DNA of 64,000 nt from Iphione sp. A-MEVVRFRX5. Its lineage: Eukaryota. The notes beneath the pieces are model-generated. The model saw only the letters and a list, made by a program, of their open reading frames with translations, searched no databases and had not been told where the DNA came from. A program made the position numbers and the translations under genes. Location: contig OZ320314.1 of the NCBI GenBank assembly GCA_976226885.1, positions 35,836,001 through 35,900,000 of the forward strand. The letters run 5' to 3'. This document shows positions 18,072-24,616 of the stretch, piece after piece (position 1 is the stretch's first letter; each line of letters opens with the position of its first letter).

Positions 18072-18090
18072 TTTTTTTTTTTTTTTTTTT
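18072..18090 (-). repeat. Poly(A) tail of the LINE (19 uninterrupted T on the plus strand)
   Basis: Direct sequence; 5 nt from the AATAAA on the minus strand. Confidence 0.9.
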
Positions 18091-21282: not shown

Positions 21283-21295
21283 TGGCTGCCGGGGG
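21283..21295. repeat. Spacer arm of a 13-bp perfect inverted repeat (TGGCTGCCGGGGG); partner at 24573-24585
   Basis: Exact reverse complement of CCCCCGGCAGCCA at 24573-24585. Confidence 0.85.
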
Positions 21296-21779
21296 GCAGA
21301 TAACTGAGTAATTGTAGACACATACTTCCACAGATTGTATCTTTATTTCTTGGTTACATAGGAACTCAAGTGGAGTTCAAGCAGTGTGTTTACATCGGTC
21401 TCATTAGTGGAGAACCAGGATGTGGCGTTTGATTATTTCAACTGTGTCTCAAAACGGAGACAATGTGATATTTTTGTAACCAATTGTTCCAGTCATATGG
21501 TCAAATATACATTGATATAGTTAGGTATGCGGGTATAACAATATGCACTCAGTTGGCTAAGATACTGATGTCGACTTAGCAGCAATATAGGGCAAACCAT
21601 AACTTGTCATTTCACACCTTGTCATATGTCATCATTTTAGCATGCATAACGATAGCTAGACATAGTGATACCCTGGTTAGGATATGTCATTATTTCGATA
21701 AGTGTATTTCCTAACATGTATGTGCCGATATCACGTTTCAAGTGTCAATTTTTAAATTTGAGCACTCATGGTAAATCAG

Positions 21780-22487
21780 TTAGATGTTCAATCGTCCTAT
21801 AAATCTCGATAGAGCACTTATCATCTCACGTCGTCCTTGTACGTTCAGATGACAACCGTCACTGTAACGATGAAGCCGATTTGTATCTCGCCCATTAGCA
21901 CGTCCATGAACGATGCAGCCAGTATGAGGTGTCGGTGAGCCATGTAGTCCATTCAATGCCAGGATCTGTCTGTTCACCAGGTGTGCTGCCCGGTTTAGAG
22001 CCCTCTGCGTCTGGTCTACTCTCTGCGTCTGGTCACCAGTCTCTGAAATTACTCCATTGCTCATATTAGCATTGTATCTCATAATGTCAGGGGCCAATAT
22101 CTGAGAAAAGACAATATATGTACTTGGTAGGTAACTAGACAGAGCTTCATACGCATCTTGTACTTTTGCTATGTAGGATTCACAAATAACATACGGATCA
22201 GTGTCGATCGCTGAAATTTGACGTCCACGAGAGCCATCTGGTAACAATGCATTTCGGTTTAGTTTTGTAATATCATTGGTACCTACCAGAAGGACGAGAT
22301 AAATTGGTGCATCTGTGAAAACAAATGATAGTATCTCATGTACTAGCCTTGATACTGTCGCTCCTGGGAATATATGAAAAGGACAGTTTAGACCATTGCG
22401 CAAAAGTCCACGATGGAGATTTCTTCCATGTGAATCGCAGAAGAAATGTATTGGTAATGGAAGTGAATCAGGGTCTACCTCTAACAT
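21780..22487 (-). CDS. SGNH/GDSL hydrolase (esterase) ORF of the LINE (235 aa)
   Basis: All four SGNH blocks in order: FFCDSH (GDS-like, catalytic Ser), FPGAT (Gly), VGTND (Asn), DGCHL (DxxH). SGNH esterases are established components of ORF1 in some CR1/L2/RTEX elements. Confidence 0.9.
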   Translation of the reverse strand: MLEVDPDSLPLPIHFFCDSHGRNLHRGLLRNGLNCPFHIFPGATVSRLVHEILSFVFTDAPIYLVLLVGTNDITKLNRNALLPDGSRGRQISAIDTDPYVICESYIAKVQDAYEALSSYLPSTYIVFSQILAPDIMRYNANMSNGVISETGDQTQRVDQTQRALNRAAHLVNRQILALNGLHGSPTPHTGCIVHGRANGRDTNRLHRYSDGCHLNVQGRREMISALSRFIGRLNI

Positions 22488-22490
22488 TTC

Positions 22491-24404
22491 TCACTGTGTG
22501 ACTGTAGACTGTCTGAGCTTGGATCTAACCTTTTCAAGAATTTGACCTAACCAGTTGCTACCTGGGTATTCCGAGCGTGTCGAGCTGAAGTTACGTAGTG
22601 ACACGCCCAGCCCCCACCTGTTGTCCAATGAGGCCTCGAGCAGTCTTAGTTCGCCAGTTGCGAGCAGAGATTTCTGCACTGATTGACATTGGCCAAATTT
22701 AGCATCAAGAATATCACTCATTGTTTGTTGGGTCATCTGGTCAGTCCATGGATTCGCCTCATTGAGGGCCTTTGTCCTGCGGGGAATAGCAGTTGGGTCG
22801 TCAATGTGCATAATGTCATTAGCTAGGCTTGTCAGTCCAGCAGCTAGAGCCTTCGTCGCCTTATACGCCTGTTCCACCGAGTTGTATTTCACACCCTTAT
22901 ACTCAAAGGCACTTAGATGCATGTTCGAGAGCGGGTGATTCTTGCCATAGAATGCGAGACAATTATCATCTCTTTTCTCAGACGCCTTTTCTAGGGTCAG
23001 TCCAGGGGGTAGTCGGTGCAGGGTCCTTGTCGTGTATGAATTGCCGTCGATTGTTAGTTTGTCACCCTCCAATCTTGCATTACAACGTAATGATTTGGCT
23101 AAGTGGAATACACTTCGCAGTTCACCTCTCTGAACCCTGTCTGTTTCTGATAAGTCCTCATTCACCCAAACACCCCTTATCGTTTTCAGATTACCCCTGC
23201 CAAACAATATACGGGCCCTTGTGCTCTGTTTAGCAAATTTAATTTTGATATCTCGAGTCTTCCTGTCAGTCTTTTGTCCTAGTCGATAGCAGTAATCCAT
23301 GTTGTATGGAGAGAATAATGGATCCGCCATTGACAGTATTTCGCAAACCCTGTCCCATAGGCGTTGAGGTGTTTCACCGCCTTCCTCACATAACCCTGAT
23401 ATAATTAGGTTTGATTGCTTGTTTTCTCTTTCTAAACGATCAATTTGATTTCTCATGGCACGTAGCTCAGCATTTGTTTGTGTGCTGTGTAGTGTACCCG
23501 TACCACCCGAGATTCTTATTTCTGCTATTTTCGCCTTTAGTTCTGCATTTTGAGCCTCAAGTTCACTGATCCTGTTATTTTGTGCCTCAATAGAGTTGAT
23601 TGCATGTTTGATTTGATCACTGTTAGCTTTCATGCCAGCATTAAAGGTTGTGTTCATACTCTTTGTTTCCTCAATATGTGAGTTGATCATTTCTGATAAT
23701 CCCTTTATTGTTGTGTTAAGATCTGATTTAAGCTCAGCAAACATACCGTGCATCAGGATAGTCCCTGTTCCATCAGTGGGACTGGAACATTTTACTTCCT
23801 TTAGGAAACTGAGTATATCGTCATGGTGGTAGTCAGGTGGGCCGTCACTAGTCACTGGTGAGAAGTCTCTTGCTTTTTTGAGATCAGGATTCTCCACAAT
23901 CGGACTGATATCCTTTCTCTTAAAATTTGTTGCTGGGGTTGCAGTAATTGAGATATCAGTTTGTGTCTGGATTTCCCTAAGATTGATCGAGTCATTGTGA
24001 GTAGTGCACGGAGCGGACACTGTAATCAGACTACCTGCCTGTGTGTCGTTTCTGTATGCAGTCAGAGTGTCGGAACCTATGTTTGTCTTTTTAGCAACAA
24101 CGGTATTTGGGGTTGATAGAGTAGGTATGTCTGCTTTCTGTGGAGTGTTGTAACCGTCGGGTCGAGTATCAGTGTCAGATATTATTCTGGTTGGTTTGTT
24201 AGTTAGTACCTCGTCTATGTTGCCATTTGTATTTCCCAAAAATGTCTTATTGTCTGTTTTCTGAGAGGTGAGATTATTTTCAGGTCGAGTGTCTTTGTCA
24301 AGTAATATTTTTGTTGGTTTTGTAGCCAGAACTTCGTCAGCATAGTCAAGCGCCGCTGTTAGCGAGGCCTCAATCAGTATGCTCTCGTCCTGAAACAAGC
24401 TCAT
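22491..24404 (-). CDS. LINE ORF1 (637 aa): N-terminal repeats, coiled coil, L1-type RRM/CTD and C-terminal NADAR domain
   Basis: The track ORF opens at a TTG (24464); the first in-frame ATG is 24404 (aaaATGa). Coiled coil at about 23421-23741 (IEAQNNRISELEAQNAELKAKIAEI). RRM/CTD-like motifs at about 23034-23435 (SNLIISGL, YRLGQK, IKIKF, VWVNEDLS, GDKLTIDG). NADAR motifs at 22512-22958. Confidence 0.9.
   Translation of the reverse strand: MSLFQDESILIEASLTAALDYADEVLATKPTKILLDKDTRPENNLTSQKTDNKTFLGNTNGNIDEVLTNKPTRIISDTDTRPDGYNTPQKADIPTLSTPNTVVAKKTNIGSDTLTAYRNDTQAGSLITVSAPCTTHNDSINLREIQTQTDISITATPATNFKRKDISPIVENPDLKKARDFSPVTSDGPPDYHHDDILSFLKEVKCSSPTDGTGTILMHGMFAELKSDLNTTIKGLSEMINSHIEETKSMNTTFNAGMKANSDQIKHAINSIEAQNNRISELEAQNAELKAKIAEIRISGGTGTLHSTQTNAELRAMRNQIDRLERENKQSNLIISGLCEEGGETPQRLWDRVCEILSMADPLFSPYNMDYCYRLGQKTDRKTRDIKIKFAKQSTRARILFGRGNLKTIRGVWVNEDLSETDRVQRGELRSVFHLAKSLRCNARLEGDKLTIDGNSYTTRTLHRLPPGLTLEKASEKRDDNCLAFYGKNHPLSNMHLSAFEYKGVKYNSVEQAYKATKALAAGLTSLANDIMHIDDPTAIPRRTKALNEANPWTDQMTQQTMSDILDAKFGQCQSVQKSLLATGELRLLEASLDNRWGLGVSLRNFSSTRSEYPGSNWLGQILEKVRSKLRQSTVTQ
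22512..22958 (-). other. NADAR (YbiA/DUF1768-like) domain at the ORF1 C-terminus
   Basis: Motifs FYG..PLSN, GVKYNSVEQAYKATK, AKF, LLATG..LLEAS.DNRWG.G and GSNWLGQILEKVR match, in order and spacing, the NADAR family pattern as I recall it from E. coli YbiA (FY..FSNF..SEHYFQAQK..AKF..LLAT..LVE..D.YWG..GKNRLG.LLM.LR). Confidence 0.88.
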
Positions 24405-24572
24405 TTTCGCCCATCTGTAGTGCCGTGCTAAGAAAAGTCGATAAATACACTCAAAATACAGCAAAACAGTATTTAGTATACAACACAGTGACAGGGATAG
24501 ATATTACCTTCAATGTTTCCACAATTGTAGGTTGAGTGTCCGTGTTGTAGAGCTTATTTAGTGTCTGTCGTT

Positions 24573-24585
24573 CCCCCGGCAGCCA
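24573..24585. repeat. 5'UTR arm of the 13-bp perfect inverted repeat; partner at 21283-21295
   Basis: CCCCCGGCAGCCA, the exact reverse complement of 21283-21295. Confidence 0.85.
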
Positions 24586-24594
24586 GAACGCGTC

Positions 24595-24616
24595 CTACCA
24601 CCACGACGCCATGTCT
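24595..24616 (-). promoter_or_regulatory. Putative LINE 5' end: YY1-like ACATGGCG motif overlapping a 5-codon uORF (MASWW*, 24595-24612)
   Basis: The minus strand reads AGACATGGCGTCGTGGTGGTAG. YY1-type ATGGCG motifs at the 5' end are established for internal Pol II promoters such as human L1; the assignment here is inference. Confidence 0.45.

Follow-up and report, generated by a model that had tools for sequence, protein, structure and literature searches.

Introduction

Two reviews of long interspersed elements (LINEs) name only stop-start coupling, unconventional reinitiation and internal ribosome entry sites (IRESs) as routes to the second open reading frame (ORF2) (PMC5972666, PMC3894237), and ORF2 translation in LINEs with long spacers is described as an open question (PMC3894237). 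We have analysed such a long-spacer LINE from Iphione sp. A-MEVVRFRX5, which lies on the minus strand of contig OZ320314.1 (GCA_976226885.1), positions 35,836,001–35,900,000. This stretch of 64,000 nt is referred to as the window, and all coordinates below are window positions, read on the minus strand. The element and its relatives share a very short upstream ORF (uORF), followed by a sequence complementary to the leader of ORF2, some 3 kb downstream. The arrangement is probably best read, from its anatomy and by analogy with viruses, as a uORF-dependent ribosome shunt of the caulimovirus type, leading across ORF1 and an esterase ORF to ORF2 on read-through RNA.

The shunt is described in the Caulimoviridae (cauliflower mosaic virus, CaMV, as well as rice tungro bacilliform virus, RTBV) and is found also in rice tungro spherical virus (RTSV) and prototype foamy virus. 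A short uORF near the 5' end terminates before a stable helix, with a spacing from stop to helix of 7–8 nt in RTBV and RTSV, and a UA-rich landing site lies beyond; the sequences of the uORF and of the arms are not conserved, non-AUG starts follow landing in some members, and a poly(A) signal and a splice donor lie within the bypassed region (PMC5902531). There the bypassed leader is a stem-loop of a few hundred nucleotides with short uORFs only, whereas the loop in the LINE is 2.8–3.4 kb long and contains ORF1 and the esterase; the host here is a retrotransposon without long terminal repeats (non-LTR), and the spacing from stop to helix is longer (median 15 nt). In duck hepatitis B virus the polymerase is reached by a shunt that begins close to the 5' end and passes over a long first ORF to the reverse transcriptase (RT) ORF, and on the template RNA. 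It differs in that the take-off site is described as undefined, and in the published descriptions consulted there is no uORF-plus-stem and no long-range helix between take-off and landing (PMC5902531, PMC3542737).

Caliciviruses, SART1 and mammalian L1 offer a parallel for the last step, the passage of ribosomes at stop-start sites, of which AUGnnUGA is a typical overlap (PMC3542737, PMC5972666). In the present family a short relay ORF ends at AUGnnUAG- or UAA-type overlaps with ORF2, and between ORF1 and the esterase the stop and the next start either overlap or lie close together. In SART1 and L1, ORF1 itself hands ribosomes to ORF2 (PMC3542737, PMC5972666), whereas here the handover would fall to a dedicated, poorly conserved short ORF lying 500 nt and one poly(A) signal past the esterase. 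In its proteins the element resembles the CR1-group LINEs (L2, Daphne, Kiri and Crack, with an L1-type or an esterase ORF1), which have an ORF2 with apurinic/apyrimidinic endonuclease (APE) and RT, an L1-like ORF1 with RNA recognition motif (RRM) and C-terminal domain (CTD), and an esterase (PMC4120745, PMC13343379). A NADAR domain on a LINE ORF1 is already published, for Crassostrea Tx1 (PMC12477816). Compared by their descriptions, these elements differ from the present ones, in which the esterase is a separate third ORF beside an L1-type ORF1 and the 3' end is a poly(A) tail; the descriptions consulted mention no uORF, long-range pairing or internal poly(A) site (PMC4120745, PMC13343379, PMC12477816). 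Listings and abstracts of the open-access literature describe no shunt and no long-range pairing between 5' end and spacer for any LINE; Repbase reports, subscription papers and supplements lie outside that search.

Results

Long-range complementarity in the window element

A sequence-only reading of the window had proposed that 24585–24573 and 21295–21283 form a perfect 13-bp helix, that a uORF encoding MASWW* (24612–24595) stops 9 nt before it, and that 120 nt, with four out-of-frame AUGs among them, separate the 3' arm from the AUG of ORF2. All of these features were found exactly as described, and the helix would loop out 3277 nt. Two further proposals did not hold. The chance estimate of about 0.002 was made post hoc; the match is the only perfect 13-mer inverted pair within the 6.5-kb element, and when the element is shuffled by dinucleotides, some such pair turns up in 115 of 200 shuffles, so that the match in a single element means little. 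The suggested 4-bp extension is unsupported: when the 5' end and the ORF2 leader are modelled as a two-strand ensemble, the 13-nt arms are the only positions to exceed a pairing probability of 0.5. The uORF has a 14-bp match of its own inside ORF1, which is the pairing preferred when the window copy is folded at full length for minimum energy; relatives have not retained it, and it was treated as chance. The 13-bp match is thus weak on the window copy alone and takes its significance from the relatives.

The arms co-vary among relatives

A search of the same genome with the NADAR region gave 3785 candidates, of which 150 were scored and 85 of the best compared; nearly all of these 85 relatives have the three-ORF layout. 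The 5' motif ATGG...GACGYG, with no stop codon required, is present in 62 of 86 elements (52 strict, 10 relaxed), and the other 24 are 5'-cut, decayed or missed by the motif search. Esterase and endonuclease are also present in 59 of the 62, and with one element dropped for a 2-kb insertion in its spacer, 58 remained for the helix tests. In each, a fixed 30-nt window after the GGACGYG box was compared with the 300 nt before ORF2 and the best contiguous helix was taken. Swap tests used 24 pairs (48 elements with usable RT) that are independent on an RT tree built from elements of this genome only.

The best helix has a mean energy of −25.3 kcal/mol when both arms come from the same element and −16.6 kcal/mol when the 3' arm comes from another. 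An element's own 3' arm ranks first of 58 in 18 elements and among the top six in 42. Sought across the whole element, the best partner falls at −300 to −50 of ORF2 in 44 of the 58 elements (2.3 expected), and with the neighbouring uORF window as query the best partners scatter. In the tree-independent pairs, own arms give a better helix energy than swapped arms in 19 cases and a worse one in 3, with 2 ties (p = 0.0009); by duplex energy, 20 are better, 3 worse and 1 tied. The 44 helices of −20 kcal/mol or better have 8–18 bp, close loops of 2.8–3.4 kb and end 59–223 nt before ORF2. They carry 35 different arm-start 8-mers, and several helix columns in clade A show A-U, G-C and G-U exchanges. 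In clade C, with its uORF of 11 codons, the helix has moved downstream with the stop and starts 22–33 nt past it; it beats all 30 shuffles in six of the seven testable elements (two more have no detectable 5' end). Among 19 new loci outside the sample, 10 were testable and 5 of them beat at least 29 of 30 shuffles, including lineages whose RTs are 34–42% identical. The sequence-only reading had named arm conservation in sister elements beforehand as the test that could refute it; in the sisters, position and pairing are kept, the sequence has changed, and the uORF is kept as a frame. By these comparisons the helix is conserved and co-varying.

The same data bear on the simplest alternative, that the complementarity is chance or the matching of G-runs with C-runs, and the uORF a by-product of promoter motifs of the YY1/downstream promoter element (DPE) type. 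Many arms are G-rich, and the frequency of 13-mer pairs in shuffles shows how readily such matches arise. Column-level pairing in clade A is also close for cognate and non-cognate arms (0.79 and 0.73), because the core is conserved; this table is illustrative only, with 2 of its 18 rows unanchored and 4 mis-registered. Chance does not account for the clustering of best partners in 44 of 58 elements, for the 19 to 3 outcome of the swap test, for the variety of arm-start 8-mers, or for the frame-preserving changes of uORF length described below. We consider this explanation largely refuted on the comparative evidence, and very improbable.

An additional helix that would pair the uORF with the landing zone was rejected as unproven (cognate −13.1, non-cognate −12.3 in 24 elements, p = 0.33). 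Separately, the best complement of the uORF clusters at ORF2 +2540 to +2670 in about eight elements (L022, L026, L028, L029, L035, L037, L048 and L027), which may reflect codons or a contact between the 5' and 3' ends.

A short uORF at the 5' end

The uORF of the window, the predicted take-off ORF, overlaps a GGACGYG box at 24595–24589, which we take to be a DPE-like internal promoter element. DPEs occur in LINE promoters (PMC4748587). A stop codon falls within codons 3–7 of the uORF frame in 59 of the 62 elements, compared with 3 and 0 for the other two frames, and the uORF is 3–6 codons long in these 59 and 11 codons long in the remaining 3. All three stop codons are used (TAG 26, TGA 26, TAA 10). 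A genome-wide search for the 5'-motif pattern, allowing seven spacings of which four are out of frame, gave 31 matches, 29 of them in frame. The AUG has a purine at −3 in 49 of 59 elements (background 0.51). Such counts indicate that the uORF has been retained as a reading frame. One 5'-motif match, L153 (G000:C2:81194400-81202400), has out-of-frame spacing and no LINE protein within 8 kb; it may be fortuitous or belong to a non-autonomous element.

A candidate 5-bp target-site duplication (TSD; 24622–24618 and 18070–18066) flanks the window element. Between it and the AUG are five extra bases, 24617–24613, the likely 5' end of the element; homology to L008 begins at 24612. Candidate TSDs were seen in 10 cases (3.8 expected), and in 4 of 53 elements, including the window's, the TSD ends 5 nt before the AUG (0.19 expected). 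The RNA is therefore likely to start just before the uORF AUG. The sequence-only reading had cautioned that this AUG may be too close to the cap. The 5' end does seem to lie about 5 nt before it, with a −3 purine in most elements, and we judge the arrangement to fit the model. A possible parallel is the TISU (translation initiator of short 5' untranslated regions, UTRs), in which the AUG is no more than ~12 nt from the cap and its fixed context also binds YY1 (PMC2518114). Here ATGGCG is conserved at about 5 nt from the likely 5' end, and the bases upstream of it are variable except for the −3 purine.

An internal poly(A) signal before the 3' arm

An AAUAAA at 21347–21342, 52 nt upstream of the 3' arm, is the predicted end of a short mRNA for ORF1 and the esterase. 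The position recurs: in 27 of 43 elements (the 44 with strong helices minus L033, whose best helix is a side helix) AATAAA lies 15–110 nt upstream of the 3' arm, against a mean of 3.8 and a maximum of 9 in shuffles. RNA cut at this signal would lack the 3' arm. Small conserved hairpins flank the signal, and in the window three hairpin-like repeats (21461–21446, 21416–21397 and 21378–21362) lie upstream of it.

In the spacers of most relatives these take the form of two to three hairpins of 6–7 bp (GGYCTC...GAGACC, GAACTC...GAGTTC) with pyrimidine loops, and in clade A the same hairpin also stands directly before the ORF1 AUG; they are possible protein-binding sites. An Rfam scan of four spacer loci found no known ribozyme or IRES and one chance match to a CRISPR repeat (E = 2.8).

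The neighbourhood of the poly(A) signal raises the alternative that the helix acts on the fate of the RNA, either by hiding the internal poly(A) site's downstream element or by marking full-length RNA for assembly of the ribonucleoprotein (RNP) and cis-preference, with the uORF separately tuning ORF1 and an IRES-like entry leading via the relay ORF to ORF2. In most cases the AAUAAA precedes the 3' arm by 50–105 nt, in several elements extended pairings run in its direction, the hairpins beside it resemble protein-binding sites, and entry by an IRES is one proposal for LINEs with long spacers (PMC3894237). This alternative leaves unexplained why the helix moves along with the uORF stop in elements whose uORF has 11 codons, and why an AUG-free zone or a relay AUG begins right behind the 3' arm. 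The spacers are, moreover, only 50–65% identical even between close relatives, and no Rfam family matched them. We think a role in RNA fate unlikely as the explanation of the locus, and it is compatible with a shunt rather than exclusive of it.

Splice-donor-like sites

A further alternative, which we regard as rather less likely again, is that the helix brings an acceptor near ORF2 together with a splice donor, which would be the uORF stop or a site at about +105, and so gives a subgenomic ORF2 mRNA. Its attraction is that 56 of the 62 uORF stops read G|GTRR, in a phase matching the AG of the frequent AUG-NN-UAG at the ORF2 start, and that splicing could give an AUG to the eight ORF2s that lack one. 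There is also a second donor-like site in the 5'UTR, AAG|GTAAT at 24510–24501, followed by U-rich sequence; 33 of 35 elements in the window's group retain it, against 1–5 of 35 for control windows. Yet 6 of the 62 elements keep the uORF stop without the GT, in 15 of 35 the stop codon found where ORF2 starts is TAA or TGA, and the ORF2 AUG and the open relay frame, both kept, would be intronic. The second donor occurs in only 4 of 21 elements of clade A, and a crude score found no positionally conserved acceptor. Nor was a spliced retrocopy seen among 20 of the 38 ORF2-start pattern matches, which were examined, or among 10 new 5'-motif loci. The donor-like site could also be a U1 site affecting transcription or the internal poly(A) site.

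Two kinds of candidate landing zone

Between the 3' arm and ORF2 there are two types of sequence, and they follow the RT tree. In clade A (21 elements) this stretch is 59–135 nt long and AU-rich (GC 25–44%), and 12 of the 13 elements with an ORF2 AUG have no AUG between the arm and that start. The ORF2 AUG is weak, with a −3 purine in only 1 of 13. The other 8 of the 21 have no in-frame AUG before the endonuclease, several having ATT or ATA at the ATG position, and two of these AUG-less ORF2s (L061 and L074) are open for 947 codons. A single out-of-frame AUG lies in the landing zone of 6 of the 8.

Outside clade A, 34 of 35 elements have an out-of-frame relay ORF of 34–62 codons that starts behind the arm. 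Its stop lies at −4 to +44 of the ORF2 AUG in 34 of 35, and at +5 in 15 of the 34; shifted controls gave 2/35, 4/34 and 1/27 (control window 150 nt, test window 120–220 nt). In the window the relay ORF is 40 codons long (21266–21144), with its AUG 16 nt past the 3' arm and its stop 16 nt beyond the AUG of ORF2 (21162–18334). The four out-of-frame AUGs that the sequence-only reading had listed as a caveat thus fit the shunt model, as the first two of them belong to this conserved ORF ending at the ORF2 start. The relay frame of the window differs from that of its sisters L008 and L021, yet still ends 16 nt past the ORF2 AUG, and landing regions are 53–65% identical in five of six close pairs. 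Because of this divergence and the change of frame, a functional relay peptide is disfavoured, and the relay ORF looks like a device rather than a protein.

Some clades show further features in this region. The clade C relay ORF keeps a short hydrophobic motif, LHD-I/L-L, about 91 nt before ORF2 (L071, L084, L091, L094, L095, L096 and L097), unlike those of other clades. TGTCAGAC is common to the relay ORFs of L027, L028, L034, L038, L040 and L051, 40–60 nt before ORF2, which is a distance from the stop-start site like that of a termination upstream ribosomal binding site (TURBS). A TURBS pairs with helix 26 of 18S rRNA in reinitiation of the calicivirus type, and may be dispensable where the upstream ORF is short. 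In another family of esterase-bearing LINEs (L101–L120) ORF2 starts with ATGGCG and several members have an open −1 frame ending at +8, which suggests, as far as the frames go, a relay ORF there too.

Overall anatomy of the element

The window element is a full-length LINE of ~6.5 kb with three long ORFs, running from ~24617 to a 19-nt poly(A) tail at 18090–18072. It has the features of an APE-type non-LTR retrotransposon: an ORF2 with APE and RT, an RNA-binding ORF1, a 3' poly(A) and no LTRs. ORF1 (24404–22491, 637 aa) encodes a coiled coil, an L1-ORF1p-like RRM/CTD and a C-terminal NADAR domain (~22949–22512, E = 2e-23), and its family profile matches human L1 ORF1p (E = 8e-4). The separate SGNH/GDSL-like esterase ORF (22487–21780, 235 aa) starts 3 nt past the ORF1 stop; the domain match, at E = 1e-3, is below the Pfam cut-off. 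After a 617-nt spacer follows ORF2, of 942 aa, and the 3'UTR (18333–18072) contains an AAUAAA and the poly(A) tail.

The N-terminal part of ORF1 contains two degenerate 88-nt repeats, 123 nt apart (24338–24128), and the N-terminus differs in length among relatives. Directly before the ORF1 AUG, at 24414–24405, stands the motif TG(A/G)GCGA(C/T/A)A, conserved in the window's group and in clade C; the window copy of it begins with an out-of-frame AUG (14 codons). At least 150 LINE loci in the Iphione sp. A-MEVVRFRX5 genome, diverse and for the most part low-copy, carry a NADAR domain fused to ORF1. A protein search with ORF1 residues 200–637 gave one distant match. Metagenome scans found nothing with an esterase, and one distant 5'-cut element with the ORF1 profile (L171), which is unusable for pairing.

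Discussion

The shunt is our preferred reading because the family shows the features of caulimovirus shunts and of stop-start sites set out in PMC5902531 and PMC3542737. There is a 5'-proximal short uORF conserved in position and length but not in sequence, a stable basal helix with co-varying arms shortly after its stop, and, outside clade A, an upstream stop that overlaps or lies near the downstream AUG, as in caliciviruses. The bypassed leader does contain long ORFs. This lowers the case for membership of the caulimovirus class, not the claim that the LINE works like it. The unusual route to ORF2 translation suggested by the sequence-only reading stands as regards the arms and the uORF, which are conserved in relatives; the shunt step itself we infer from work on caulimoviruses.

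The following sequence of events is proposed. Transcription would start ~5–10 nt before the uORF AUG. RNA cut at the internal AAUAAA would be without the 3' arm and would serve ORF1, by reinitiation, and the esterase, by stop-start coupling. Read-through would yield a full-length RNA with both arms, and the complementary, co-varying arms could then form the helix in vivo. A ribosome that has translated the 4–5 codons of the uORF would skip past the base of the helix and come down beyond the 3' arm. For clade A, scanning of the AUG-free, AU-rich stretch would then bring it to a weak AUG or a non-AUG start of ORF2; for elements of the window's group, translation of the relay ORF would come next, followed by a restart at the AUG of ORF2 that the relay ORF overlaps. 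The consequence would be a low output of ORF2, confined to RNA able to retrotranspose.

Several observations weigh against a shunt. All of the evidence is comparative and comes from one genome. The helix starts a median of 15 nt past the uORF stop (7–26 nt in 44 elements), further than the 7–8 nt of RTBV and RTSV, and in 14 of the 58 elements no contiguous helix reaches −20 kcal/mol. Half of the ten testable out-of-sample elements fail, and two of the five that pass are near-identical. The minimum-energy fold of the 3.5-kb stretch of the window copy does not contain the helix, other pairing being preferred, and ribosomes translating ORF1 would disrupt a helix that closes a loop of 2.8–3.4 kb. 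AAUAAA is absent from the tested interval in 16 of the 43 elements, and the retention of the donor-like site at 24510–24501 in the window's group keeps splicing alive. At the 5' end, the uORF overlaps promoter motifs, so that part of its conservation may be transcriptional, and the bases before the AUG differ between near-identical siblings, so that the −3 signal needs frequent resetting plus selection.

With these points taken into account we still favour the shunt, and we lean, with somewhat less confidence, to the wider conclusion from the comparative data that a pararetrovirus-style shunt over two complete genes (~3 kb), gated by the internal poly(A) site and with two solutions for landing, arose independently in a LINE lineage that is both large and old. 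The family offers a precise and testable answer to how ORF2 is translated in long-spacer LINEs, in the form of a defined uORF together with a helix of 12 bp, a poly(A) signal and a place to land, and it provides dozens of natural variants. If the reading is true, LINEs would gain their first shunt, one whose span far exceeds that of the shunts in the reviews consulted. It would also suggest a compact tool, with which a far-downstream gene is expressed from one capped RNA. For the elements themselves, it would give a physical explanation of low ORF2 levels and of cis-preference, and it would extend shunting by uORF and stem from viruses to a transposon.

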